Assembly (NCBI GenBank): GCA_031409275.1
Contig: JANNXA010000043.1
Span: 1-64,000, forward strand
Direction of reading: 5' to 3'
DNA length: 64,000 nt
DNA from: Planctomycetota bacterium
GTDB lineage: Bacteria; Planctomycetota; B15-G4; SIAN01
Made by a program: the position numbers and the translations under genes. Positions 11,554-25,686 of the stretch are shown here, piece by piece. Under the pieces are notes generated by a model. It had not been told where the DNA came from and made no database searches. It saw nothing but the letters and a program-made list of their open reading frames with translations. The first letter of the stretch is position 1, and every line of letters starts with the position of its first letter.

Positions 11554-12384
11554 TCAGAGGTAGCGCAGCGCGCCGAGCGCGTGGAAGAGCGTCGCCGCGA
11601 GCGTCGCCCATGACACCGGCACATGGAACAGCAGCCAGCCGTGCAGCCAGTGGTGGAGTCGGCGCTGCTGTTCGAGCCCGCAACGTTCGTCGCAGAGATC
11701 GAAGAGATCATCGACCGCTTCATGCATCGGCGCCGGCAGCAGTCGCTTCAGGTGCGCTCGCTGCATCGGCGCGGTCGAGCGCTGCTCGAAGAGGCTTGCG
11801 CGCGGGCGTGCGGCAGCGAGGAAGGGCCGCACTTGCGACTCGTAGAAATCGCGCAACGGCGCGTGCTCCGGATGGGGCGCCTTCGCGCCGCACCACTTCT
11901 CGATCAGCGCGCTTGCCTCCTCGCGCAGCAGCTGCGCCACGTGGTCGATCTGCTCGTAGATCGTCTCGCGCACGACCTGCTCGGTCATGACGCGCGGCAG
12001 GAAATGTTGCAGCGCGACGCCGACCACTCCGCTCGCCCAGCTAGCGAGGAAGAGCGCCATCAGCCAGCTCGTGAGCGAGCCGCCGCAAGCGAAGTCGCCG
12101 TGGAAGAGCACCAGCGGCAACGACAGCGCGCCAAGCCAGACGTGCCCCGACAGCCAGCGCGACGTCTTGCCGAGCCGCCACGCCTTCCGCCGCTTGCGCA
12201 GCGTGAGCGCCGCGCCGGTCACCATGCAAGCCAGCGCCGCGATCCCGAAGGCGAGCCCCCACGCGCTGCCGCCCGTCAGCGGCGCGAGCGGATCGCGTCG
12301 CACGAGCCACCAGCAGCCGGTGGCGACCAGCAGCGTGGCGCTGCAGCCGACGATCCAGGGACGCTGGCGCGCGTCGATGCGCAT
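11554..12384 (-). CDS. Integral membrane protein, probable di-heme cytochrome b / ferric-reductase-like
   Basis: About 5 hydrophobic helices; two intramembrane His pairs 14 residues apart (HVWLGALSLPLVLFH; HVPVSWATLAATLFH). Confidence 0.7.
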   Translation of the reverse strand: MRIDARQRPWIVGCSATLLVATGCWWLVRRDPLAPLTGGSAWGLAFGIAALACMVTGAALTLRKRRKAWRLGKTSRWLSGHVWLGALSLPLVLFHGDFACGGSLTSWLMALFLASWASGVVGVALQHFLPRVMTEQVVRETIYEQIDHVAQLLREEASALIEKWCGAKAPHPEHAPLRDFYESQVRPFLAAARPRASLFEQRSTAPMQRAHLKRLLPAPMHEAVDDLFDLCDERCGLEQQRRLHHWLHGWLLFHVPVSWATLAATLFHALGALRYL

Positions 12385-13958
12385 CAGCGAGCCCCCTTCG
12401 GCGGCGTCGTGACGCCTTGCAACGGGAAGAGGCGCTGCTCGAAGAACTTCAGCGGATCGACGCGATGGGCGGCGTCATGCGGGCAGCCCGCGACGCAGGC
12501 CGGCTCGCCCTGGTCCATGCAGAGGTCGCAGGTGGTCGCTTTCGTCTTCGGCTTGGCGGCGCGTTCCGGGGCGCCCGCGCCCGCGCCCGCTTCCGCGAGC
12601 TCGACCATCGAGATGTTCCCGTACGGGCATTGCTTGGCGCACAGGCTGCAGCCGATGCACCAATCCTCGATCACGATCTCGAGCGACTCCTTGCGGCGGA
12701 TGGCGCCGACCGGGCAGCCGACCATGCAGAGCGGGTCGCGGCAGGTGCGGCAGGTGGTCGCGACGAGGTACTGGTCGAAGCGCAGTCCGTCGCGGATGAG
12801 GCGCGTGACGCCTTCGTGGGCGCTGGCGCAGCCATGCACGCACTCGTCGCAGCGCGTGCAGCGGTCGAGGTCGAGCAGCAGGAGGTTCTGCGCCTGCATG
12901 AGCCCCTGCGAGAGGAACTGCTCGAGGTCGACCGAAGCGCCGCGCTGCGCGAGCGTCGCGTTCTGCGCCGCCCGCTCGGTCGCCAGCGTCGCCAACCGCG
13001 CGCGCACGTCCGGGAAGCGCGCGACCATCTCGGCGAAGTCGCTGCTCTCGATCTTCACGACTTCGACGTGATCGAGCGCCATGCAGGTTGCGTTGCGCGG
13101 CACGGAAGAGAGCAACGCCATCTCGCCGAAGCAGCTGCCGCGCGGCAGGTAGGAGAGCACCATGTCGCCGCCGGGCCAGTGCTTCGACACCTTGACGAAG
13201 CCGATGCGCACCAGGAAGAAGCCGTCCGCGACGTCGCCTTCCTTGAAGATCACCTGGCCCGGATCGAAGCGCAGCAGCTTCACCCGCGGCCGCAACGCGT
13301 CGACGAACTCGCGCGAGAGCCCCTGCAGCAGCGGTACGCCGGCGAGGTGCTGATCGAGGGCGCGCGCGCGGTACTTCTCCTCGAGCGCGGCGCGGAACGT
13401 GGTGTTCCTCTGCAGCTCGACCAGGATGTTGCGCAGCATCTCGACCACGACGACGCGCGTCTTGGCGCGGACCGTCGCGGAGCGAGGGTAGAAGCTCAAG
13501 CACGCCATCTCGCCGAAGAGGTCGCCGGCGCCGAGTTGTGCGATCGGCCGCTGCGAGTCGAGGTCGACGGGTGCGTCGATCGGGATGTAGCGGCGCGGCG
13601 TCGCCGTCTCCGCTTCGGCCGGCGCGCGCGTCAACACCTGCTTCAGGCGACGAAAGAAGCCGCCGCTCGCCTGCTTCTGCACGCGGCCCAGCGTCGCCTG
13701 CAGATAGACCTCGGCGCTGCCTTCGAGGATCACGAACGCCGTCGAGCCGAACTCCCCTTCGCGGCACAGCAGCTCGCCCGGTTCGAAGACGCGGCGCACG
13801 ATGGCGCCGGGGTTCTTCTCGAGCTTGCTGCGCGAGAAGCCTTGGAAGAGCGGCAGGGCGAGCACGGCGTCGGGCGACAGCGGCTCGCCGTAGTCGAGAC
13901 GCTGCTCGACGGGCGCGAGCGGCGTGGGCGGCGCAGCGGTTACAGGTTCGGCGCTCAT
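12384..13958 (-). CDS. Tandem cyclic-nucleotide-binding domains fused to a DmsB/NrfC-like 4x[4Fe-4S] ferredoxin
   Basis: Phosphate-binding cassettes FGEMACLSFYPRSA and FGEMALLSSVPRNA; 16 Cys in CTRCDECVHGC, CRTCRDPLCMVGCP, CIGCSLCAKQCP and CDLC-x7-CVAGCP; no signal peptide. Confidence 0.9.
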   Translation of the reverse strand: MSAEPVTAAPPTPLAPVEQRLDYGEPLSPDAVLALPLFQGFSRSKLEKNPGAIVRRVFEPGELLCREGEFGSTAFVILEGSAEVYLQATLGRVQKQASGGFFRRLKQVLTRAPAEAETATPRRYIPIDAPVDLDSQRPIAQLGAGDLFGEMACLSFYPRSATVRAKTRVVVVEMLRNILVELQRNTTFRAALEEKYRARALDQHLAGVPLLQGLSREFVDALRPRVKLLRFDPGQVIFKEGDVADGFFLVRIGFVKVSKHWPGGDMVLSYLPRGSCFGEMALLSSVPRNATCMALDHVEVVKIESSDFAEMVARFPDVRARLATLATERAAQNATLAQRGASVDLEQFLSQGLMQAQNLLLLDLDRCTRCDECVHGCASAHEGVTRLIRDGLRFDQYLVATTCRTCRDPLCMVGCPVGAIRRKESLEIVIEDWCIGCSLCAKQCPYGNISMVELAEAGAGAGAPERAAKPKTKATTCDLCMDQGEPACVAGCPHDAAHRVDPLKFFEQRLFPLQGVTTPPKGAR

Positions 13959-16900
13959 CGCGACTCCTCGTCGGCGACGGTGTAGAGCGCGCCCGCGCGC
14001 AGGTAGAGGCGGCGCATCTCGTCCAGCGTGAAGGGGCGCGCGCCGCGTCGATTGAAGACGGAGAGCTGGTTCCCGCTTTCGTCGACGGCGCGGTCGCGAT
14101 CGAGCCCCTCCGAGATGGCGAGCGCGGGCCCGTCCGTCGCGAACGTCGCGATCAGGCGCGGCGTCGGTTGCTGCGTGAAGCCGGCGAAGCCGGGCGTCTC
14201 GCCGGCCGTTACCAACTCGATCACGCGCAAGCCGTTCACGCCGTCAGCGACGTAGCCAAAGACGCTGTTGTTGGTCATCGCGACCTTGACGTCGTTCACG
14301 TCGGTGAGCGCGCCGTCGGCGTCGAACGTCGCGAGCAGGAGTGGCGCGCGCGGTCGCTCGACGTCGACGATGGCGATGCCGTGGCGGCCGGCGGCGACGT
14401 AGGCGTGGGTGCGCGAGAGGTAGACGTTGCGCGCGTCGGCGATGGCGACGGTCGCGTCATCGATCGGCCGTGGCGCGTCGGGATCGGTGAGGTCGAGGAG
14501 GCGCAGCCCGCGCGCGTCGCTGACGAAGGCGTAGCGAAACTGCACTTGCACGGCAGTCGGCGCCTCGACGTGCGGCGCGCCGATGACGGTGACGAGACGC
14601 GGTTGGAGTGGATCGGCGAGGTCGACGATCGCGAGGCCGCCGCGGCAGCCGACGTAGGCGCGCGTGCCGGCGACCGTGACGCTGGTGGCGCCGCTCAACG
14701 CTTGCCCAGGGTTGAAGGTGACGCTGCGCTCGAGGAAGTTGTTCTGCGGGTTGCCATCGAGCAGCGTCGCCGCGTTGACGAGGATCAATCCCTCCTCGAA
14801 GTCGGCGACGTAGAGGAAGGCGTAGAGCAGGTGGATCGCCGCTTCCTCGTTCTCGGCGCGCCGCGTGCGGCCGGGATCGAGCGCCGTGGTCGCGGGCGAG
14901 GCGACGCCGCGCGCGTCGCGGGTCGCCACGTGAAGACGCTGCCCGAGCGGCGAGACGGGCGCGGAGACGCTCTTCTCGGAGAGCCCTTTGTGGTCGACGT
15001 TGGCGACGTCGAAGACGCGCAAGCCACCGCTGCCGCACGCCGCGTAGACGTACTCGCCGCGCAGCTGCAGCGAGCGAATCGTCGGCGCCGAGCCGGGCAG
15101 CAGCCGCTCGCCCACGTCGTCGGCCGGATGGTGGACCGAGAGGGTCAGCTTCGAGTCGCCGGCGCGGTGCGCGGCGAACGCTTCGGGATAGGCGATTCGA
15201 TGGAGGTTGCTGCCGACCACGGCCTGCGGCTCATCGCGCTCGGTGACGACGACCGCCTCGAAGCCGGCGGCGCCGGTCGCGACGTAGCAGTAGCGGCCGA
15301 TGAAGCTCGTTTGGTTGGTGCCGAGCAGCAGCAGCTGCGCCATCCACGCATTGTTGTCGTCGGCGCCGCTCACGTGGCAGTCGCTGCACTTCTTGGTGGC
15401 GCCAGCGCCGCGGACGGTGTGGGGGACGTAGGTGCAGAACGCCTGGCCGGAGAAGCCCTCCGCTGACACGGTCTGCTGCTGCGCGTAGACCCACTCGCGA
15501 TCCTCGTTCTGCGAGGAGACCAGCACCGCGCAGGTCGAGCGCGCCGGCGAGATGCGGCCGCCCGCCACCGCGCCATCGACGGCCAGCATGTAGCAGTCGT
15601 CGCGCAGCGTCTGGAAGTTGTAGGAGGTCCAGTTGCGCGCGATCTGCCCGTCGGCGTGGAGATTCGGCGTGCGCTGGTTCGCTTCCATCGGCAGGTGGCA
15701 GCCGAAGCACGACGTCGTCCAGCTCGTGTGACAGGCGGCGCAGGTCATGCGCGAGTCGGCGTGGGCGCGATCGCCGGCAGCGTTGCGCATCGTCTTCGCG
15801 CGGGCCGACTTCGCGTTGTAATGCGCGGCGCCCGGAGTCACCGTGTCCTGCACCTGCACCACTTCCCAGGTCAGCTTCGGCGTGACGACGCTGCGCTGAT
15901 AGAGGCGCTCGCCCTGCCAGAAGAAGCGCCGCTCGCCAAACGGAGTGGTCAGCGCTTCGAGGTCGTGGCCCGGTTCGCCGCCATTCGTCGGCACGCCCGC
16001 GGCGTTCGCTGCCGGACCGCTGGTGCGCAAGTTCGCCTTGGCGTCGACGCTGCCGTGGCAATCGTCGCAGTCGATCTCGATGGCGCCGCGCACCTCGTTG
16101 TGCAGCCGACCGGTGCCGTGGCTGTCCTGCTCGAAGTGGCAGTCGACGCAGTGCATCCCCTTCTCGAGGTGGATGTCCATCAAGTGGACCGCGCGCGCGA
16201 ACTTGTCGGGCGCGTCGTCCGGGATCACGGCGCCGGCGCCATCGAGCAGCTCGCCATGCCGGTTGCGCTGATAGACGTTGCGGAAGAGCCAGCCGTGGCC
16301 ATGGAAGTCGGCGAACTGCGTCTGCTCCAGCTTCGCGTTGAACTCCGGCGTGCCCGTCTTCGCGAGGAATTGCGGATCGCTCCAGAGGCCGCGCAACGCG
16401 GCGCCTTCGGGGTTCTTCGCGCGGATCGCCGCCTTCTCTTCGGCGGTCAGCTGCTTGCTCTGCGCCGGATAGAGGTGCTCTCCGTCGGTTTCGTTGTCCC
16501 ACCAGAGCGTGCCGTAGTAGCTGTTGGTGACCGTCGTGCCGGGATGCATGTGGCAGACGACGCATTGGCTCGATGGGATCGCGCGCGTGAAGCGGTGCTT
16601 CAGCGGATGGCCCGGCTCGTCGTGCGGGATCGTCGGATCGGCGGTGACGCTGGTGCCGCCGTTGCCGTGCGCTGCGATCGCGCCGGAGTGGCGCGGATCG
16701 CGGTCGTTGGCGTAGAGGACGTGGCACGCGCTGCAACCGCTGGCGCGGTAGTCGCCGGGATGGTCGTTCGTCCCGAATTGGTTCAACGTCGGATCGAGCA
16801 GTCGCGTCTTCTGCAAGCCGAGGAAGACTGGATCGGTGCGAGTCTGCGTCCCGTAGCCGCGGTTGCTGAGCTTCGCTTCGGGATCGCCAGGTGGCTCGAA

Positions 16901-17722
16901 GGGGTTGGGCAGCCCGATCTCCGGCTTCCTGCGCCCGCCGCGCTCGAAGACGCGCAGCACGTTGCCCGGCTGCGTGATCTCCCATCGCGCCAGCGGTTGC
17001 AGCGACGGCAACCATCCGCGCGCGCGTTGCTCTTCGTCGGTGGGTGCCGGACGCGCGACGAGCTGCGCCGCCTCGCCCGACTGGTGAACCGCCTCGCCGA
17101 AGCGCGCGTCCTTCCACGGCACGGCGCCGTTGTTGTAGAGCGCCGCGCCCCACAGCATCGCGCCGTGCGCCATCATCCCGCCGCGCACGCGTTGCACGAG
17201 GTCGCCGTGGCAACCCGCCGTGCCGCAGCTCTGCGGCGCCGCGCGCAGGTCGCCGGGATTGACGAAGCGGATCCAGTCGAGCGACTCGTGCAGCGAACCG
17301 GTCGCGAGGCGTTCCGGATTCGCAGAGGACAGCACGCCGCCGCGCTGCCAGAGTTCAGGGCGGCCTGGCTGCGGATGAGCCGCTTCCTTCGTCGCCGCCG
17401 TCGCGTCACCGCCGTGGCAGTCGACACATCCGAGATGAAGAGCGCCGCTCGCGTGCATGTCGAGGTCGTCGACGAAGGCGGCGGCATCGGTCGTTTCGAC
17501 GTAGCCCGAGTGGCAGGCGACACAGCCGCTCGACTTCGCGAGCGCGGCCGAGGGGTCCTGGTCGAGCAGGGAGCGCGGCGTCGAGGTGGAGCGCCCGAGA
17601 TCCGTGGTCGCCTCCGCGGAGCCGTCGCGTTCGTGCGCGCCCGTGCAGGCGTAGGCCAGCAGCGCCAGCGCCGCCGCGATGAATGCGGCGCCGCGGGCAC
17701 GCCGATGCGTCCCGAGCTTCAC
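13955..17722 (-). CDS. Large multiheme c-type cytochrome lipoprotein with C-terminal LVIVD beta-propeller
   Basis: GTG start after GGAG; MKLGTHRR...LALLAYAC lipobox; 9 CxxCH plus one CX4CH (CGTAGCH); repeats YVAT/YAAC/YVAD...GLRVFDV/GLAIVDL/GIAIVDV. Confidence 0.88.
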   Translation of the reverse strand: MKLGTHRRARGAAFIAAALALLAYACTGAHERDGSAEATTDLGRSTSTPRSLLDQDPSAALAKSSGCVACHSGYVETTDAAAFVDDLDMHASGALHLGCVDCHGGDATAATKEAAHPQPGRPELWQRGGVLSSANPERLATGSLHESLDWIRFVNPGDLRAAPQSCGTAGCHGDLVQRVRGGMMAHGAMLWGAALYNNGAVPWKDARFGEAVHQSGEAAQLVARPAPTDEEQRARGWLPSLQPLARWEITQPGNVLRVFERGGRRKPEIGLPNPFEPPGDPEAKLSNRGYGTQTRTDPVFLGLQKTRLLDPTLNQFGTNDHPGDYRASGCSACHVLYANDRDPRHSGAIAAHGNGGTSVTADPTIPHDEPGHPLKHRFTRAIPSSQCVVCHMHPGTTVTNSYYGTLWWDNETDGEHLYPAQSKQLTAEEKAAIRAKNPEGAALRGLWSDPQFLAKTGTPEFNAKLEQTQFADFHGHGWLFRNVYQRNRHGELLDGAGAVIPDDAPDKFARAVHLMDIHLEKGMHCVDCHFEQDSHGTGRLHNEVRGAIEIDCDDCHGSVDAKANLRTSGPAANAAGVPTNGGEPGHDLEALTTPFGERRFFWQGERLYQRSVVTPKLTWEVVQVQDTVTPGAAHYNAKSARAKTMRNAAGDRAHADSRMTCAACHTSWTTSCFGCHLPMEANQRTPNLHADGQIARNWTSYNFQTLRDDCYMLAVDGAVAGGRISPARSTCAVLVSSQNEDREWVYAQQQTVSAEGFSGQAFCTYVPHTVRGAGATKKCSDCHVSGADDNNAWMAQLLLLGTNQTSFIGRYCYVATGAAGFEAVVVTERDEPQAVVGSNLHRIAYPEAFAAHRAGDSKLTLSVHHPADDVGERLLPGSAPTIRSLQLRGEYVYAACGSGGLRVFDVANVDHKGLSEKSVSAPVSPLGQRLHVATRDARGVASPATTALDPGRTRRAENEEAAIHLLYAFLYVADFEEGLILVNAATLLDGNPQNNFLERSVTFNPGQALSGATSVTVAGTRAYVGCRGGLAIVDLADPLQPRLVTVIGAPHVEAPTAVQVQFRYAFVSDARGLRLLDLTDPDAPRPIDDATVAIADARNVYLSRTHAYVAAGRHGIAIVDVERPRAPLLLATFDADGALTDVNDVKVAMTNNSVFGYVADGVNGLRVIELVTAGETPGFAGFTQQPTPRLIATFATDGPALAISEGLDRDRAVDESGNQLSVFNRRGARPFTLDEMRRLYLRAGALYTVADEESR

Positions 17723-17847
17723 TACTCCCTGCGACACGATCGTGGGGCTCCCCGGGCGCGCAGCGCGCCACGAGGTCAGCGATCGGCGGCCGGGAAGCCG
17801 CGGCTTGAGAAGTTCTTTCCGCTCCGACCGGCCGTCGCGCTGCCGTC

Positions 17848-19254
17848 CTACGCGACGATCCCCTTCACCACTTCTCCGTGCACATCGGTGAGCCGGAAGT
17901 CGCGTCCCTGGTGGCGGTAGGTGAGCCTGGTGTGGTCGAAGCCGAGCTGCTGGAGCAGCGTGGCTTGCAGGTCGTGGACGTGGACCGGGTCCTGGACGGC
18001 GTGGTAGGCGAAGTCGTCGCTGGCGCCGTGGACGTGGCCGGCGCGGAAGCCACCGCCCGCCATCCACATCGAGAAGCAGCTCCCGAGGTGGTCGCGTCCG
18101 TGGGCGTCGCGACGGTTGACGTCGCCTTGCACGAAGACGGTGCGGCCGAACTCGCCACCCCACAGGACGATCGTGTCTTCGAGCAGGCCGCGTTGCGCGA
18201 GGTCCTGCACCAGCGCGGCGGAGGGCTGATCGGTGTCGCGGCACTGCACTTCGAGCTGCGTCGCGAGGTTCTGGTGCTGGTCCCAGCCGGCATGCATGAG
18301 CTGGACGAAACGCACTCCGCGCTCGAGCAGCCGGCGCGCGAGCAGGCAGTTGCGCGCGAAGCTGCCCTGCCGCTGCACGTCGGGGCCGTAGAGATCGAGC
18401 ACGCTCTGCGGCTCGCCGCGCAGATCGAGCAGCTCGGGCACGCTCGCCTGCATCCGGAACGCCAGTTCGTACTGGGTGATGCGCGTGTCGATCTCGGGAT
18501 CGCCGAACTCCGCGAAGTGCTTGGCGTTCAGCGCGGCCAGATCATCGAGCGTTCCGCGCTTCAGCTCGCGCGGAATGCCCGGCGGATCGCCGAGGTAGAG
18601 GACCGGCTCGCCTTCGGCGCGGAAGCGGACGCCTTGGTGTCGGCTCGGCAGGAAGCCCGAGCCCCAGTAGTGGTCGTAGAAGAGCTGCCCGCAGGTCTTG
18701 TCGGCGTCGGACGAAGTCATCACCACGAACGCCGGCAGATCGCTCGAAAGGCTGCCGAGCCCATAGACCGTCCATGCGCCGAAGCTCGGTCGTCCTGGAA
18801 TCTGGCTGCCGGTCATCCACAGGGTGACGCCGGGCGCGTGGTTCACCGCCTCGGTGTGGAGCGAGCGCACGAGGCAGAGCTCGTCGGCGATGGAACCGAT
18901 GTGGGGCAGCAGCGTCGAGAGCTCCATGCCGCACTTGCCGTAGCGCTGGAACGGTCGGATCGCCGGCAGGATCGGATAGCGGCCCTGGCCCGACGTCATC
19001 GTCGAGAGACGCGCGCCGGAAAGGATCGACGCGGGCAGTTCGCTTCCACGCAGTGCTTCGAGGCCGGGCTTGGGATCGAAGAGATCGACGTGGGAAGGCG
19101 CGCCACCTTGCCACAGCACCACCACGCGTTTCGCCTTCGGCGCGAGTTGGGGCGCCGCCTGCGCGAGGCCATCGCGGCCGAGCAGGCCGTGCAGCGCCGC
19201 GAGCCCAAGGCCCGCGCCGCTCTGCTGCAGGAACGCACGGCGCGTCACTCGCAT
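17848..19254 (-). CDS. DUF1501 domain protein with Tat signal
   Basis: MRVTRRAFL Tat motif; GAPSHVDLFDPKP, GRPSFGAW, WDQH, GEFGRT and FRLTDVHGEVV motifs. Confidence 0.9.
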   Translation of the reverse strand: MRVTRRAFLQQSGAGLGLAALHGLLGRDGLAQAAPQLAPKAKRVVVLWQGGAPSHVDLFDPKPGLEALRGSELPASILSGARLSTMTSGQGRYPILPAIRPFQRYGKCGMELSTLLPHIGSIADELCLVRSLHTEAVNHAPGVTLWMTGSQIPGRPSFGAWTVYGLGSLSSDLPAFVVMTSSDADKTCGQLFYDHYWGSGFLPSRHQGVRFRAEGEPVLYLGDPPGIPRELKRGTLDDLAALNAKHFAEFGDPEIDTRITQYELAFRMQASVPELLDLRGEPQSVLDLYGPDVQRQGSFARNCLLARRLLERGVRFVQLMHAGWDQHQNLATQLEVQCRDTDQPSAALVQDLAQRGLLEDTIVLWGGEFGRTVFVQGDVNRRDAHGRDHLGSCFSMWMAGGGFRAGHVHGASDDFAYHAVQDPVHVHDLQATLLQQLGFDHTRLTYRHQGRDFRLTDVHGEVVKGIVA

Positions 19255-22166
19255 GTCATCGCCTCGTCGAGGTTCAGGATCGAGAGGCACGCGATGGCGA
19301 GCGCGGCGTGGTCGACGACATCGAGCGCCGCGTCGCGCGGGCTCGCGCCGACCGACAACAGCTGCAGGGCGGCGCTGGCTCCCGCGCCGCGATCGGCGGT
19401 GAAGTGGTCGCGCGCGCGTTCGACGGTCCGGCGCAGGAGCGCCAGCTCGTCGCGATCGGGCGCGCGCGCGCAGACGCGGCGGAACGCGCTCGCGAGCTGC
19501 GCGTCGAGCCCTTGCTCGCGTTGCAATGCCCATTGCGCCAGCGCGCGCGCCGCTTCGATCCAGGTCGGGTCGTTCTGCATCGTCAGCGCATGGAGTGGCG
19601 TCGACGTGACCGAGGGTCGCACCTTGCAGGTCTGGCGCGCCGAGGCGTCGAAGAGGTTCCCCGGCGCCACCGTGCGTCGCCAGAAGGTGTAGAGGCTGCG
19701 TCGCCACAGGTCGGGCCCGCTCGACAGCGGATAGGCGAAGTCGCGCTCCTTCGTGATCGAGAGGCCATCCCAGATCCCTGCCGGCTGATAGGGGTAGACC
19801 GGCGCGCCACCGACGTTGGGCACCAGAAGGTCGCTGGCCGCGAGCGCCACGTCGCGCAGCACCATCGAGCTCAGCCGCTGCCGCGGCCCGCGCGCGAGCA
19901 GTCGGTTCTCCGGATCGCGCTCGCGCAGCTGCGCGCCACGCTCGCCCGCGAGCCGCGAACTCTGGCGGAACGCGGCGCTGCGCACGATCGAGCGGTGCAG
20001 CGCTTTCATGCTCATCGCATGCGTCGTGCGCAGCTCCACGGCCAGCCAGTCGAGCAGCTCCGGGTGGCTTGGTGCCTCGCCCTGCAGGCCGAAGTTCTCG
20101 CTCGTCTTCACCAGCCCGGTCGCGAAGAAGTGCTGCCACGCGCGATTGACCAGCACGCGCGCGAAGAGCGGATTCGTCGGCGCGGTGAGCCATTGCGCGA
20201 GGCCGAGCCGATCGTGCGGCGCGCCCTCGGGCAGCGGCGGCAGGAAGGCGGGCGGTGCCGGCTCGACCGTCTCGAGCGGCGTCTCGTAGTTGCCGCGTGC
20301 CAGTCGGTGCGTCGCGCGCGGCTCGCCATCGGACATCACCATCACGCGCGGGAGCTGCGCCTGCAGCGTTTCGAGCGCGGTGCGCGCCGCGGACTGCTGC
20401 GCCAGCGCGGCGGCGAGTGGCGCAGGCGGCGTGAACTCGGCCAGCGCGCCGGCGGGGCTCGCGTCGAACCAGAAGCCGCCGGGTCCGCCGCCATTCACGA
20501 TCTGCATCAGCAACTCGTGGTCGCCGGTAGCGAGCGACACCTCGGCGCGCTCCTGATCGGGCGCGGCGCCGCGCATCACCCGCCGCTCGAGCAGCAGCGC
20601 TCCATCGAGCCAGACGCGCAGCGCATCGTCGCTGCCGAAGCGCAACGTCACGTTGAGCGGCGCGGTGGTGCGCAGCGTGCGACGGAAGAAGAACGCCGTG
20701 TTCTCGCCGGCGAGCGGATGGACGACGCCGTCCGCAAGGTCGGGTCGCTCGGTCCAACTCGCGACGTTTGCGACGGGGAGCGCGTCGGCTGCATCGAAGC
20801 TCGCCGCTGTCAGCGGTGCCGCCGCCTCCCAAGGCGATCGTTCCAGTCGCGCCATGGCCGCGTCGCGCTCTCTCTCGAAGTCGCGTTTCGCCGCGACCAC
20901 GGCCGGATCGGCGAGCGCCGCGGCCGCGGCTGCATCGGCTGCGAGCGCCGCCTGCTCGAGCGCGAGGCGCTGCTGGTTCTGCTCGTTCGTGCCGGCGTAG
21001 ATCCACGGATCGGCGATGCGGTACTGCCCGCTACCGCTCGGCACGCCGCTCTCCGGCACCCGGTTCCAGAAGGTGAAGAGCGAGTAGTAGTCGCGCTGCG
21101 TGAGCGGGTCGTACTTGTGGTCGTGGCACTGCGCGCAGGCGGCGGTGAGGCCGAGGAACGTCGTTGCGAAGACGTCGACGCGATCGAAGACGAGGACGTT
21201 CCTCTGCTCCTCGGCGATGGCGCCGCCCTCGCCGTTCAACAAGGCGCAACGCTGCAGGCCGCTCGCCACTTGCTGTTCGATGCGCTGCAGTGGATCGGGC
21301 GCCGGCAGCAGGTCACCTGCGATCAGCCGCGTTGCGAGCACGTCTTGCGGCAGGTCGTCGTTGAGCGCGCGCACCATCCAATCGCGCCAGACCCACTGGA
21401 AGGTGTCGCCGTCCTGCTGGTAGCCGTTGCTGTCGGCGTAGCGCGCGGCGTCGAGCCACGGCAGCACCATCCGCTCGCCGTAGTGGGGGCTCGCGAGAAG
21501 CCGGTCGACCGCGCGGTCGTAGGCATCGGGCCGGGGCCGCTCGCGCGGCTCCGCCGCCGACTCGGCGACGAACGCATCGATCTCCGCGAGGGTGGGCGGC
21601 AGTCCGGTGAGCGCGAGCGTCGCGCGCCGCAGCAGCGTGATCGGCGCCGCCTCCGCCGACGGCGCCAGCCCTTCCTGCTCGAGTCGCGCCAGCACGAAGC
21701 GATCGAGCGGCTCGCGACACCATGCCGCGTCGCGCACCTCGGGCAACGGCGCGGCGCGCGGCGCTTCCCATGCCCAATGGCCGGCCCACTTCGCGCCCTG
21801 CTCGATCCAGCGGATCAGCGTCGCCCGCTCGGCCTCGCTCAACTCCTTGCCCGAACTCGCCGGCGGCATCCGCTTGCGCGGGTTCACTTCGGTGATGCGC
21901 GCGACGAGTTCGCTGGCATCGATGTCGCCGGGCACGATCGCCACGTTCCCCGACTTCGCTGCTGCGAACGCTGCCGCGCGAACGTCGAGCCGCAGCCCCG
22001 CCTTGCGCGCCGCCTCGTCGGGCCCATGGCACTTGAAGCAGCGATCGGACAGCAGCGGCTGCACGTCGCGAGCGAAGTCGACGGGGAGGTCGGCGACACC
22101 GTTCCCGACCGCGTCGCCGCGCGGCGCGATGGAGCTGGCAACCACGATCAGCAGCGACACGACCAT
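19245..22166 (-). CDS. Planctomycete cytochrome c + DUF1549 + DUF1553 (PSD1) protein
   Basis: DFARDVQPLLSDRCFKCHG, HYGERM..WLDAARYADSNG, CAQCHDHKYDP, PSHPELLDWLA and STPLHALT. ATG 22166 chosen (alternative GTG 22184). Confidence 0.9.
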   Translation of the reverse strand: MVVSLLIVVASSIAPRGDAVGNGVADLPVDFARDVQPLLSDRCFKCHGPDEAARKAGLRLDVRAAAFAAAKSGNVAIVPGDIDASELVARITEVNPRKRMPPASSGKELSEAERATLIRWIEQGAKWAGHWAWEAPRAAPLPEVRDAAWCREPLDRFVLARLEQEGLAPSAEAAPITLLRRATLALTGLPPTLAEIDAFVAESAAEPRERPRPDAYDRAVDRLLASPHYGERMVLPWLDAARYADSNGYQQDGDTFQWVWRDWMVRALNDDLPQDVLATRLIAGDLLPAPDPLQRIEQQVASGLQRCALLNGEGGAIAEEQRNVLVFDRVDVFATTFLGLTAACAQCHDHKYDPLTQRDYYSLFTFWNRVPESGVPSGSGQYRIADPWIYAGTNEQNQQRLALEQAALAADAAAAAALADPAVVAAKRDFERERDAAMARLERSPWEAAAPLTAASFDAADALPVANVASWTERPDLADGVVHPLAGENTAFFFRRTLRTTAPLNVTLRFGSDDALRVWLDGALLLERRVMRGAAPDQERAEVSLATGDHELLMQIVNGGGPGGFWFDASPAGALAEFTPPAPLAAALAQQSAARTALETLQAQLPRVMVMSDGEPRATHRLARGNYETPLETVEPAPPAFLPPLPEGAPHDRLGLAQWLTAPTNPLFARVLVNRAWQHFFATGLVKTSENFGLQGEAPSHPELLDWLAVELRTTHAMSMKALHRSIVRSAAFRQSSRLAGERGAQLRERDPENRLLARGPRQRLSSMVLRDVALAASDLLVPNVGGAPVYPYQPAGIWDGLSITKERDFAYPLSSGPDLWRRSLYTFWRRTVAPGNLFDASARQTCKVRPSVTSTPLHALTMQNDPTWIEAARALAQWALQREQGLDAQLASAFRRVCARAPDRDELALLRRTVERARDHFTADRGAGASAALQLLSVGASPRDAALDVVDHAALAIACLSILNLDEAMTCE

Positions 22167-22218
22167 CGCGCAGAGCGTAGCCACCGACCCGGAACGGGGC
22201 GTGCCGCCGCGCGCCCCC

Positions 22219-23982
22219 TCACCAGGTCAACGTCACCCCGACGAAGCCGGCGTAGAGCGTCTGCCCGCCGCCGAAGAGGTCGCGCGCCCCTTCGCCGGGG
22301 AGGAGCCACGCGCTGCCGGCGGTCACGATCACGTTGTCGGTGAGCCACGGTCGCCACGTCGCGCCGATCGAGAGGTCGAGGCCGATGGTGGGGGCGATCT
22401 GGTCGTCGTTCAACGCCAGCTCGAGCGGAGCGGTCCGATCGAAGCGCAGCCAGCTGGCGTTCAGTTCGACCTTGAGTTCCTGCGTCAGCTTCGCGTCGAG
22501 GCCGGCGTTCACGATCAGCAGGCCGGGGTTCACGTGGTTGGCGGCGTCGTGCAGCTTCGAGGTGCGCAGGTGGGGGAGCAGCGAGGCGCGGTCGACCAGC
22601 GTGACGGGAGTTCCCGTCAGCGCGATGCCCTGCCGGTTCCAGAAGGAGAAGGGCCCGCCGACGAAGTTCACCTGATCGAAGATCGAATCGAAGCCGCGCG
22701 CGACGGAGTCGGTCGGATCGTCGTCGCCGCTCGCCCAGAAGAGCGAGCCCTTCGGCCGCAGCCAGTCGAAGTCGCGCGACAGTTCGAGCGCCGCCATCTG
22801 CGCGTTCACGCGCGTGCGCCGTCCCGCCAGCGGGTTCAGCGTGTCGCGGCCGACGACCTCGTAGAGCGCGTGGCTGACGTTCAGCCAGCCGACGTGCCCT
22901 TCGCTGGTCCAGCCCATGTAGACGGTGTCGAGTTCGTGGTCGGCCGCGCTGCCCAGTCGCGTCGGCCGCGCCGGGAAGCCGTTGTCGTCGCGGAACGCGC
23001 CGCCGCGATCCTGGTTCCAGTGCAGCGACGCCTGATGCGTCCAGCCGGGCGCGAAGCAGTCCTGCACGTACCAATTCGCCACCAGCACGCGCTGCTCGCG
23101 CAGGTCGGTGAAGTCGACCAGTCCGCTGTTGGTGTCCTTCTCGGCCAGCGCGAACCAGGCGAGGTTCCACTGGTCGCGGTTGCTGCGCCGGCTGCCGAAG
23201 AGGCGCACGCCCGGCTCGAAGTCATTGAAGATGAAGCCGCGGAAGTCGCTGAGGAACGGCTGCAACCCGGTTCGGGAGGAGATGAAGTCGTAGTGAGGCG
23301 AGGTGTCGGCGAGGTGGATCTCGACGAACGCCTCCTGCAGCGCGAAGAAGCGATCGGAGCGCGTGTCGCCTTCGCGCGGATCGATCGCGGTGGCGTTCTT
23401 CTCCTGCAGGCGCAGCTCGTTGCGCTGGAAGACGGGAGTGAGGCGCAGCTCGAAGTCGCGCGGGCGGTAGGCGGCGTCGCCGTGGAAGAGTTCGAACGAG
23501 AGCAGCAGCGTCTCGCTGGCGAAGAACTGCTCGCCGCTCCCGAAGAAGGTGTCGCTGCCGGGAGTGGCGGTCGACACGCCGCTTGGCGTCGGCAGGCGCC
23601 GCCGCTCGACGAGCGTGTCGCTGGTGGCGGTCAACGCGAGGAACCACTCCTGGCCGACGATCGGCAGGTCGCCCTTCAACACGTTGCGGCGGTAGGGATT
23701 CCACCACTGGTCGGCGACGTAGGGGTACTCCTCGTTCCCGACGTCGTAAGGCGAGCCGGCCGCGTAGCGCGCCCACTCGTCGAAGTCGATGCGCCAACGA
23801 TCGGGCAGCGGCAACACGTCCACCGTCGGCACGGGCGAGGGCGGCTGCGGCGGCTCCTGCGCGAGCGCTCGCGCGGGCGCGGGCGTGGCGAGGCCGATCG
23901 CCATGAAGGCGAGCGGCAGCGTGACTCGTCGCGCGATTCGCCCTGACACTCCCAAGTTGCTCCGCGTCGCACGGCGCCTCAT
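22219..23982 (-). CDS. Probable outer-membrane beta-barrel protein
   Basis: Signal peptide ending ALAQE; alternating amphipathic strands; C-terminal ...YAGFVGVTLTW Bam-type motif. Start uncertain. Confidence 0.75.
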   Translation of the reverse strand: MRRRATRSNLGVSGRIARRVTLPLAFMAIGLATPAPARALAQEPPQPPSPVPTVDVLPLPDRWRIDFDEWARYAAGSPYDVGNEEYPYVADQWWNPYRRNVLKGDLPIVGQEWFLALTATSDTLVERRRLPTPSGVSTATPGSDTFFGSGEQFFASETLLLSFELFHGDAAYRPRDFELRLTPVFQRNELRLQEKNATAIDPREGDTRSDRFFALQEAFVEIHLADTSPHYDFISSRTGLQPFLSDFRGFIFNDFEPGVRLFGSRRSNRDQWNLAWFALAEKDTNSGLVDFTDLREQRVLVANWYVQDCFAPGWTHQASLHWNQDRGGAFRDDNGFPARPTRLGSAADHELDTVYMGWTSEGHVGWLNVSHALYEVVGRDTLNPLAGRRTRVNAQMAALELSRDFDWLRPKGSLFWASGDDDPTDSVARGFDSIFDQVNFVGGPFSFWNRQGIALTGTPVTLVDRASLLPHLRTSKLHDAANHVNPGLLIVNAGLDAKLTQELKVELNASWLRFDRTAPLELALNDDQIAPTIGLDLSIGATWRPWLTDNVIVTAGSAWLLPGEGARDLFGGGQTLYAGFVGVTLTW

Positions 23983-24054: not shown

Positions 24055-25686
24055 GTGAGTGAGCCGCTCGCAGCAACCGCTCGCACCGCGGCAGCGTCGG
24101 CGTTGCTGGCCGCGCTGTCGCTGCTGATTCCGTCGAGCTGCAGCGGCGGCAGCGATTACGGCGCCGCGGGCGGCAGCGTCTCGACGCCGCTGGTGCCGCT
24201 GACGCAAGCCGAGGTCGAGCAGGTCGTCGCGCAGGCGGTGACGCAAGCGGTGGCGCGCGGCGTCGTCGTGACGGTGGCCGTCAGCGATCGCGAAGGCGAC
24301 GTGCTGGCGCTGTTCCGCATGAGCGGCTCGACCGCCGACGAGGACGACGCCGTCTCCGCTGCCGGCACCGCCGCCTACTTCGCCAGCAATCAGAACGCGT
24401 TCACCACGCGCACCGCCGAGTTCATCATCCAGGACCATTTCCCGCCGACGACGAAGCAGACGCCGGGCGGGCCGCTCTACGGCGTGCAATTCAGCAATCG
24501 AGTCGCCACCGACGAGCCGGGCGGCCTGCTGCTCACCACCGATGGCCAGCCGATCGGCCGCGATGCGCTCGCCAACGCGGTTGGCGAAGGGATCACCGGT
24601 TTGACCGTCGCGGGCGGCGGCGGCGGCGTTCCGCTCTACAAGTCGGGCGCAGCGGCGGGCGGCATCGGCGTGGTCGGGGATGGCGTTGCGCCCGATGAGC
24701 TCGAGCGGATCGCAGTCGCTGGCAGCGCTGGCTTCGCGGCGCCCGCTTCGATTCGCGGCTCGCAGATCGTGATCGACGGGATCCGGCTGCCCTTCACCGA
24801 GACGACACCGGTCGAAGATGGTTCGACGCTCGCCTTCGCCTCGTTGCCCGGTGCGGTCGAGTCAGGCTTGGCGCCGCGCGCGAGCCCGATGCCCGCCCTC
24901 TTCCCGAGCGCGACGTTCGGTGGCGCGACGTGCGAGCTGCGCCTGCCGATCATCGACAGCCCGCTCGGCGATCCGGTGCAGCTCGAAGCGGCGGAAGTCA
25001 GCGCGATCCTCGCCGCCGCGGTCGCCCGTTCGCAGCGCACGCGCGCCGCGATCCGCCGTCCGCTCGGCACCGCGATGCAGTGCTTCATCGTCGTCGTCGA
25101 TCGCGCCGGCAACGTGGTTGGCGCGTTGCGGACGCCCGATGCGACGCTCTTCAGCTTCGACGTCGCGATCCAGAAGGCGCGCAGCGCGGCCTTCTTCAGC
25201 GACGACGACCACGGCTACACGACCCGCGCGCTCGGCTTCCTTGCGCAGGGGCTCTTCCCGCCGGGAATCGACGGCACGAGCGCCGGTGCGCTGAACGGAT
25301 TGCAGGCAGCGCTCACGGCGTCGGGCGAGACGGCGGCCGGCGCGCTCGCGAACGGCCTGACCGTCTTCCCAGGCGGCGTGCCGCTCTACGAAGCGGGAGT
25401 AAGAGTCGGGGCGATCGGAGTCTCCGGCGACGGGGTCGATCAAGACGACCGGGTCGCCGACAGCGGCGCGAATGCCGGCTTCGCCGCGACTCGTCGCGTG
25501 CGCTGCGACTTCCTGACCGAGTCCGAGGCGCTGGCGGGACTCGATGCCGCGCTGGCGCGTCTCGACGGCGTCAGTAGCGACGCGACCTTGCGCGCGCAGA
25601 TCGCGAGTTGCCGAGCGCGCCTGCAGGACGGGCTCGACGGACTGCGCCTGCCGTGGGTGAAGCTCCCTCGCAACGGCGATCGCTGA
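24055..25686 (+). CDS. Lipoprotein with two GlcG/HbpS (heme-binding, Haem_degrading) domains
   Basis: GTG after GGAG; LLIPSSC lipobox-like; VAVSDREG...GGVPLYKSG..GGIGVVGD and VVDRAGN...QKARSA...PGGVPLY..VGAIGVSGD. Confidence 0.82.
   Translation: MSEPLAATARTAAASALLAALSLLIPSSCSGGSDYGAAGGSVSTPLVPLTQAEVEQVVAQAVTQAVARGVVVTVAVSDREGDVLALFRMSGSTADEDDAVSAAGTAAYFASNQNAFTTRTAEFIIQDHFPPTTKQTPGGPLYGVQFSNRVATDEPGGLLLTTDGQPIGRDALANAVGEGITGLTVAGGGGGVPLYKSGAAAGGIGVVGDGVAPDELERIAVAGSAGFAAPASIRGSQIVIDGIRLPFTETTPVEDGSTLAFASLPGAVESGLAPRASPMPALFPSATFGGATCELRLPIIDSPLGDPVQLEAAEVSAILAAAVARSQRTRAAIRRPLGTAMQCFIVVVDRAGNVVGALRTPDATLFSFDVAIQKARSAAFFSDDDHGYTTRALGFLAQGLFPPGIDGTSAGALNGLQAALTASGETAAGALANGLTVFPGGVPLYEAGVRVGAIGVSGDGVDQDDRVADSGANAGFAATRRVRCDFLTESEALAGLDAALARLDGVSSDATLRAQIASCRARLQDGLDGLRLPWVKLPRNGDR

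Follow-up and report, generated by a model that had tools for sequence, protein, structure and literature searches.

A planctomycete PtdE-like protein with tandem cyclic-nucleotide-binding domains and a four-cluster ferredoxin: a candidate switch on a trans-membrane electron conduit

Cyclic nucleotides steer bacterial respiration mainly via transcription factors. The locus described here raises the question of whether they may also act directly on an electron carrier. It lies in a 64,000-nucleotide stretch of Planctomycetota DNA (assembly GCA_031409275.1, contig JANNXA010000043.1, positions 1 to 64,000), hereafter the window, and encodes a 524-residue protein in which two cyclic-nucleotide-binding (CNB) domains are fused to a ferredoxin with ligands for four [4Fe-4S] clusters. 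On balance, we favour the reading that this protein belongs, as a cyclic nucleoside monophosphate (cNMP)-regulated, cytoplasmic iron-sulphur (Fe-S) subunit, to a trans-membrane electron conduit of the Ptd/PCC4 type, the throughput of which would be switched by cyclic AMP or cyclic GMP (cAMP, cGMP). Established at the level of sequence are the domain content, the intact motifs, the gene coupling and the conserved order with a membrane protein and a decahaem cytochrome. The CNB and Fe-S fusion is already named in print (PtdE; ptd/PCC4 clusters, 2017/2024), and the architecture is real, intact and widespread; new here are the form that lacks an electron-input module and the co-variation of cyclases with nucleotide-binding cassettes. 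If the proposal is true, direct gating of an Fe-S-to-cytochrome wire would add a new level of control, and a function could be given to the Ptd/PCC4 clusters of Acidobacteriota, Planctomycetota and Proteobacteria, so far described from genomes and transcripts.

Domain content of the PtdE-like protein

The gene is a single open frame, and its GC contents by codon position (0.69/0.48/0.92) are gene-like for 70% GC DNA. Its parts are given below; conservation counts here and throughout refer to an alignment of 58 sequences, namely the window protein and 57 homologues, non-redundant at 82%, drawn from 120 loci.

window:12384-13958, reverse strand: PtdE-like short form (P0001), CNB-A, CNB-B and 4x[4Fe-4S]-type ferredoxin, 524 residues
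13410..13862, reverse strand: CNB domain A, about residues 33-183; G, E and R retained in 57/58 homologues
13554..13697, reverse strand: insertion of about 50 residues in CNB-A, about residues 88-135, with a low predicted local distance difference test score (pLDDT)
12969..13346, reverse strand: CNB domain B, about residues 205-330; G, E and R retained in 46/58 homologues
12459..12890, reverse strand: four-cluster ferredoxin domain, residues 357-500; 16 Cys, matched in Pfam and NCBIfam

The Pfam matches include cNMP_binding (expectation value, E, 2e-37) and Fer4 families. The phosphate-binding cassettes, FGEMACLSFYPRSA in domain A (residues 148-161, 13476-13517) and FGEMALLSSVPRNA in domain B (residues 277-290, 13089-13130), both contain the G, E and R; each domain also has the beta2-beta3 glycine that is conserved together with the cassette (G68, G241). 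Cassette A has Cys at the Leu position and Ser after the Arg, and otherwise matches the canonical motif. The canonical cassette, FGE..L...PR, and the accompanying glycine are described in the accessible part of PMC2246266, and the window protein carries both of these hallmarks of cAMP/cGMP binding.

Sixteen of the 20 Cys residues fall into four DmsB/HydN-type motifs (residues 367-377, 403-415, 434-444 and 477-492), and all 16 are invariant (58/58). The top NCBIfam matches of this domain include HydN and DmsB, and HycB3/HycB4 chains are among the top matches in PDB. The domain thus resembles the DmsB, NrfC, HydN and HycB ferredoxins in having all 16 ligands with their spacing, but differs from them in being fused to tandem CNB domains and in scoring under the cut-off of every family. 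The AlphaFold model (pLDDT 83, predicted template modelling score, pTM, 0.79) consists of two CNB folds and a ferredoxin domain, and the pTM value suggests a defined packing of the three domains. Foldseek ranks the paired CNB domains of PKG and PKA as the top matches of the model. A CNB pair with canonical cassettes is a feature shared with the PKA/PKG regulatory subunits and with the Bact_Pyrredox architecture, a fusion of tandem CNB domains to a pyridine nucleotide-disulphide oxidoreductase (PMC2246266, Table 1, as far as this source is accessible); in Bact_Pyrredox the fusion partner is likewise a redox protein, whereas the regulated part here would be an Fe-S wire, neither a flavoenzyme nor a kinase.

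The initial annotation of this gene had recorded two intact cNMP domains with their cassettes, the 16 Cys of a DmsB/NrfC-type ferredoxin, and the lack of both a helix-turn-helix (HTH) domain and a twin-arginine translocation (Tat) signal, and all of these observations hold. No HTH family is among the 13 Pfam families matched, and a CRP/FNR-type transcription regulator is ruled out by the lack of a C-terminal HTH. Likewise, no twin-arginine motif was found within residues 1-60, and a Tat-exported NrfC is ruled out because an export signal was not found; the missing signal is expected, since the ferredoxin is likely to face the cytoplasm, lying against a membrane cytochrome. No hydrophobic segment or membrane helix was detected in the protein.

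An amphipathic basic segment (residues 101-111) within the CNB-A insertion has a hydrophobic moment of 0.86, in the top 1% of the protein. This segment is possibly a membrane anchor. The insertion is at least 30 residues long in 49/58 homologues. The segment is frequent among these 49 homologues. The nine homologues lacking the insertion have a long loop of 37-87 residues in the ferredoxin domain, with a similar segment in some of them (L151, L161, L164 and L165 are the loci behind this contrast), as if a putative anchor had shifted between domains.

The Ptd/PCC4-type cluster and its electron input

Although the initial annotation had treated the fusion as a free-standing oddity, it is instead a PtdE homologue, coupled to the gene of a PtdF-type membrane protein and accompanied by an NADH module in most close relatives. 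Start/stop overlaps flank the PtdE-like gene: the stop of a nine-haem cytochrome gene lies on its start, and its own stop lies on the start of the PtdF-like gene. As judged from this overlap, the PtdE-like and PtdF-type genes are translationally coupled. The core of the cluster continues with two genes:

11554..12384, reverse strand: PtdF/PCC4 inner-membrane protein, predicted two-haem cytochrome b, 276 residues
10384..11544, reverse strand: PtdG-like decahaem cytochrome c, N-terminus with a single membrane segment; 10 CxxCH, Pfam cytochrome c7/c3

This order is conserved in two sets of loci. The first set comprises the best 80 of at least 476 confirmed stretches (600 scanned), nearly all from Acidobacteriota; the flanks of some of these loci end at contig ends, and within flanks a PtdF homologue is found at 79/80 and a decahaem cytochrome at 75/80. 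The second set comprises 40 further Planctomycetota loci, 20 top-ranked matches and 20 weaker ones picked for long contigs. PtdF is present at 30 of these 40, and elsewhere in the genome in 5/5 tested genomes with a PtdF-less locus. At E<=1e-40, a PtdE-like match is carried by 75 of the 401 genomes of the window phylum. Among 8000 scored candidates, 4695 match at E<=0.001, many of them probably in one domain only; a length of at least 600 residues is found for 109 of the best 120.

The accessible part of the preprint on the ptdABCDEFG cluster defines PtdE by cyclic-nucleotide binding and 4Fe-4S clusters and calls its function unknown (bioRxiv 10.1101/2023.11.21.568154). Homology to PtdE was judged against locus L146, whose gene order and Pfam content are as described for ptdABCDEFG and which stands in for the preprint's own sequences; in several loci, L146 among them, the order is pentahaem cytochrome, porin, FAD/NAD(P) reductase, tetrahaem cytochrome, PtdE, membrane protein and decahaem cytochrome. 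The window protein and the PtdE-position protein of L146 are 31% identical over 547 columns (E 1.8e-61), and the PtdF- and PtdG-position genes are also homologous (E 3e-19 and 2.5e-12, respectively). At the window locus, CNB domains and 4Fe-4S ligands occur in one protein, followed by PtdF-like and decahaem PtdG-like genes, whereas PtdA, PtdB, PtdC and PtdD are all missing. We therefore regard the protein as homologous to PtdE and its cluster as a variant one, because the core E, F and G genes match L146 and the remaining ptd genes do not.

Several features distinguish this variant: (i) the sequence has the ligands of four clusters, whereas the preprint, in its accessible part, counts two; (ii) both cassettes are intact, whereas in the canonical ptd-order copies only cassette A is; (iii) the outer module consists of a nine-haem LVIVD lipoprotein, a barrel of another family and an HbpS-like protein; and (iv) cNMP control, considered here, is not proposed in the accessible part of the preprint.

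PCC4 subgroup II and the ptdABCDEFG cluster appear to be the same. According to the readable parts of He et al. 2017 (PMC5566968), a pfam13247 Fe-S gene precedes a five-helix membrane protein in this subgroup; the PCC4 membrane protein has an SGXXG and two WX3HX13H motifs, and the subgroup II cytochromes have 4, 5 and 10 haems and are accompanied by a porin. The same source reports PCC4 in Planctomycetes, models inward flow to quinone and, in its main and readable supplement text, does not mention cyclic-nucleotide domains. Like subgroup II, the window locus has an Fe-S gene directly upstream of a five-segment PtdF-like protein and a ten-haem cytochrome, with a barrel nearby. PF13247 is matched under its cut-off in the window protein (E 2.4e-4) and over it in the L146 homologue. 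Differences from subgroup II are the haem content, 10 + 9 with no five-haem and no linked four-haem cytochrome, and the barrel, which is not detectably related to the PCC4/PtdB porin, as compared with shallow profiles. There is also a likeness to long-form acidobacterial homologues, in which the core is 56-59% identical and both cassettes, the F-G order and the nine-haem/barrel/HbpS module are shared. There a NuoG-like Fe-S module, two CNB domains and the ferredoxin form one protein, encoded with a NuoE-NuoF gene; this architecture was not found in print. None of the four extracellular electron transfer architectures reported from peat could be matched to the window locus, and the accessible text mentions neither cyclic nucleotides nor NADH (bioRxiv 10.64898/2026.05.27.727921).

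The PtdF-like protein has five hydrophobic segments. Its alignment comprises 57 sequences, the window copy and 56 of 60 non-redundant ones (L063, L141, L142 and L143 were omitted for short or doubtful starts). H81, H95, H254 and H268 and the two WX3HX13H motifs are invariant in all 57, and SGxxG is found in 50, the window copy included. Two HX13H motifs on helices 3 and 5, the arrangement expected of a ferric-reductase-like protein, are present, and Pfam Ferric_reduct is matched at E<=0.05 by 10/57 members (best 8.8e-6). Structure-based searches were less telling: at E<=0.001 Foldseek returned nothing for the PtdF model, nothing convincing came from comparing its profile with the sequences of solved structures (best E 0.2), and the fold similarities to STEAP4 (Z 7.4, root-mean-square deviation 4.8, 154 aligned residues), cytochrome b561 (Z 7.4; 3.6, 136) and the designed two-haem protein 4D2 (Z 8.1; 2.6, 102) are within helical-bundle noise.

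The window protein differs from most of its relatives in its electron input. An N-terminal [2Fe-2S]/NuoG-like Fe-S module is found in 75/80 loci and an upstream NuoE-NuoF gene in 73/80, which by their similarity to known modules would give an NADH input in most close relatives; the input of L146 is a FAD/NAD-binding 2Fe-2S reductase. The window protein has neither the N-terminal module of about 210 residues nor the upstream NuoE-NuoF gene. This short form recurs in L041, L056, L057, L076, L114-L118, L124, L127, L129, L130 and L133, and it is intact, in the same order, in two congeners (75-83% identity), which argues against decay. A same-genus genome encodes the same PtdE-like protein as L001. 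A NuoE-NuoF fusion occurs elsewhere in five short-form genomes; in at least three of them it lies near a formate-dehydrogenase-like large subunit, as read from the sequence, and it is therefore at most a possible input of the short PtdE. A tree built by a quick method mixes long and short forms, with six changes for the long state, two of them forced by strong branches, and does not give the order of gain or loss of the input module. The short form, compact by nature at 524 residues, is a convenient construct for binding and gating work.

Cyclic-nucleotide ligand, mechanism and rival explanations

Two lines of evidence, cassette conservation and cyclase co-occurrence, support a real cyclic-nucleotide ligand. 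Across homologues of about 30% identity, the G, E and R of cassette A are retained in 57/58 and the beta2-beta3 allosteric glycine in 58/58. Cassette B has lost them in 12/58, including all seven canonical ptd-order copies. A class III cyclase is encoded within the fetched flanks at 14/120 loci (6/80 and 8/40) and lies inside the cluster in L148, L150 and L153. Five genomes chosen for a flank cyclase hold 2, 3, 2, 5 and 15 cyclases in 5-12 Mb, so that chance adjacency is unlikely. Within the phylum, class III cyclases are found in 72/75 genomes that carry the PtdE-like gene and 212/326 that do not (401 genomes; Fisher p 5e-9, overstated by kinship), and within the window genus in 3/3 carriers, being not found in the 2/2 non-carriers. 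All three cyclase-less carriers have eroded cassettes: the cassette arginine is gone from both domains in G128 and G372, and G223 (= L137) has a degenerate cassette B and an altered cassette A. Ser or Thr after the cassette arginine is compatible with cAMP or cGMP; thus, the ligand may be either of the two.

We propose the following mechanism. The ferredoxin would, very probably, hold four [4Fe-4S] clusters and be docked to the PtdF-type protein from the cytoplasm, where the amphipathic insertion may tether it. Electrons would probably pass through two b haems of PtdF across the membrane to the anchored decahaem cytochrome, and further to the nine-haem lipoprotein and the barrel. We are similarly confident, as for the docking, that at least CNB-A would bind the product of a class III cyclase, a cyclic nucleotide. 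It is reasonably likely that nucleotide binding would shift the helix between CNB-B and the ferredoxin, thereby opening or closing transfer to PtdF, by analogy with NOX5, which is controlled by EF-hands. The direction of flow would be outward from NAD(P)H, judging by the relatives, in which the input is NuoEF/NuoG-like or a FAD/NAD(P) reductase; the short form, with no linked input, would receive electrons from a donor encoded elsewhere, for example a soluble ferredoxin or a dehydrogenase. More tentatively, and with slightly less than even confidence, we suggest that these clusters may form a widespread class of conduits switched by cAMP/cGMP at the protein level, a prokaryotic counterpart of a ligand-gated NADPH oxidase; both the input (NuoEF diaphorase, FAD/NAD(P) reductase or, at the window locus, none in cis) and the multihaem output would be exchangeable, and the input-less form could then be the minimal gate, using a cytoplasmic donor.

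Three other explanations have to be weighed against a cNMP-gated conduit. The initial annotation had offered two interpretations, a second-messenger switch placed on an electron carrier and a redox sensor. Cassette conservation and cyclase co-occurrence favour the former, which we regard as the best reading of the sequences; the latter is weaker because the protein lacks an output domain. In the form of an inward route or signal relay, it would have periplasmic cytochromes reduce PtdF, possibly with the quinone exchange of the PCC4 model, and the redox state of the ferredoxin alter nucleotide binding or a partner contact, feeding into cyclase or kinase signalling. We think this unlikely. It would accord with the proposal, in the accessible part of PMC5566968, that Fe(II) oxidisers take up electrons by way of PCC4, with the N-terminal FHA domains of L045 and L130 and the FHA-fused cyclase inside the L150 cluster, with the short form of L124, which lies beside a kinase-like gene (as read from the sequence start) with no PtdF in 20 kb, and with the lack of a linked NADH input in the window copy itself. 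However, no output domain was found in the protein by Pfam, CNB domains usually act as inputs, and the NADH-oxidising modules beside most close relatives fit bulk electron flow better. Somewhat less probable still is a constitutive electron-transfer subunit, in which the CNB domains would be spacers or would bind a small ligand for assembly, stability or membrane attachment only. The loss of cassette B noted above, above all from every canonical ptd-order copy, speaks for this reading, and both cassettes have been lost in some lineages that retain all 16 Cys, therefore the wire survives without the sensor. Its difficulty is that cassette A and the allosteric glycine have persisted almost without exception at such low identity, and that cassette loss tracks cyclase absence in 3/3 cases. 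Finally, the locus could be a remnant that no longer conducts, its NADH module lost and its tetrahaem partner moved. An input gene was found neither at the locus nor in the genome, a PtdD-like gene lies on another contig adjoining a transposase-like gene, and the PtdE-like gene is missing from two of the four other genomes of the genus; yet every frame and motif is intact, and the same short form recurs in the same order in the two congeners and also in other lineages, which makes decay very improbable.

The preferred reading of a cNMP-gated conduit has its own difficulties, and the following points weigh against it. PCC4 subgroup I has no Fe-S gene (PMC5566968, accessible part), therefore a conduit can exist without this subunit; the subunit being optional in some clusters therefore fits a regulatory role or an alternative input. 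The window PtdF-like protein has no Pfam match. The NuoE-NuoF fusion was not found in the window genome (92.9% complete), the single NuoF of which lies inside the complex I operon, and the genome behind L001 likewise has only a complex I-type NuoF. PtdA and PtdC orthologues in the window genome were sought with only weak matches (E>=7e-12), and PtdB with none; the PtdD-like tetrahaem gene (4 CxxCH) is unlinked, on another contig (G000:C34:168170-169485, L081). The sole cyclase of the window genome is also unlinked, on a third contig. In G074 (L151), of the same family as G372, a cyclase is present and both cassettes are degenerate, and the genome counts are inflated by kinship, with cyclases common in the phylum (284/401). 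No published test of cNMP control of Ptd/PCC4 was found in the open-access literature, and the papers found hold no binding, activity or expression data for any member. No RNA sequencing run was listed as containing the sequence, and the four listed DNA runs, all of one study that may be its source, carry no weight as evidence.

Neighbouring genes and variation in the family

The remaining genes of the window locus are as follows:

13955..17725, reverse strand: nine-haem LVIVD-repeat cytochrome c, probably a lipoprotein by its signal; 9 CxxCH, Pfam LVIVD, start inferred
17848..19254, reverse strand: DUF1501 protein, between the barrel and cytochrome genes; Pfam E 1e-148
19245..22184, reverse strand: PSD1/PSCyt planctomycete cytochrome, same insertion as the DUF1501 gene; Pfam
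22219..23904, reverse strand: probable outer-membrane beta-barrel, by language-model similarity; start inferred
24055..25686, forward strand: HbpS-like haem-binding protein, gene transcribed away from that of the barrel; PF03928 E 2e-27, start inferred

The nine-haem cytochrome is found within 10 kb of the PtdE homologue in 53/80 loci, the barrel in 38/80 and the HbpS-like gene in 21/80; a c554-type tetrahaem cytochrome is found in 69/80. The first three genes form a co-travelling module that occurs in varied arrangements at Acidobacteriota and Planctomycetota loci. The DUF1501/PSD1 pair is probably not part of the system, since it occurs in 1/80 related loci. The barrel gene has no Pfam match; it resembles clusters of the alginate-export family (0.95-0.99), a language-model look-alike that serves as a lead only, and its profile-comparison probability against four PtdB-position proteins is 0.1, the profiles being shallow. 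PtdA and PtdB were rejected as identities of the nine-haem cytochrome and the barrel, respectively, for want of a blastp match at E 0.01. The nine-haem cytochrome is weakly similar to ExtM (E 5e-21), far under the cut-off. No molybdoenzyme, hydrogenase or NrfD-type partner was found among the neighbouring genes scanned with Pfam.

The window genome (G000) is rich in multihaem cytochromes, with 28 open frames having at least three CxxCH and two having 23 (contigs C28 and C33). NuoF and NuoG of contig C55 were considered as a split-off input and rejected, being sited in the complex I operon. The unlinked PtdD-like tetrahaem gene adjoins a transposase-like gene, a label taken from reading the sequence; in L001, a PtdD-like homologue follows the decahaem gene at a distance of about 6 kb. 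Two of the four other genomes of the window genus are without a PtdE-like gene.

Additional PtdE copies away from ptdF were observed in L124, L125 and L119-L121; the neighbours of the L124 copy resemble a two-partner secretion pair and a kinase, as read from the sequence starts. One PtdE copy upstream of ptdF (G328:C3:786665-788193) was matched in two pieces and is possibly frameshifted, and an intact long copy is found elsewhere. A third cluster type (L139, L141, L142, L143, L151, L152 and L136) consists of a 17-18-haem cytochrome, PtdF-like and PtdE-like proteins and a 15-haem cytochrome; a class III cyclase adjoins it in L141-L143. FHA domains are fused N-terminally to the PtdE homologues of L045:8912-11521 and L130:8553-10745, and to the in-cluster cyclase of L150:5497-7236, hinting at phosphothreonine control too.

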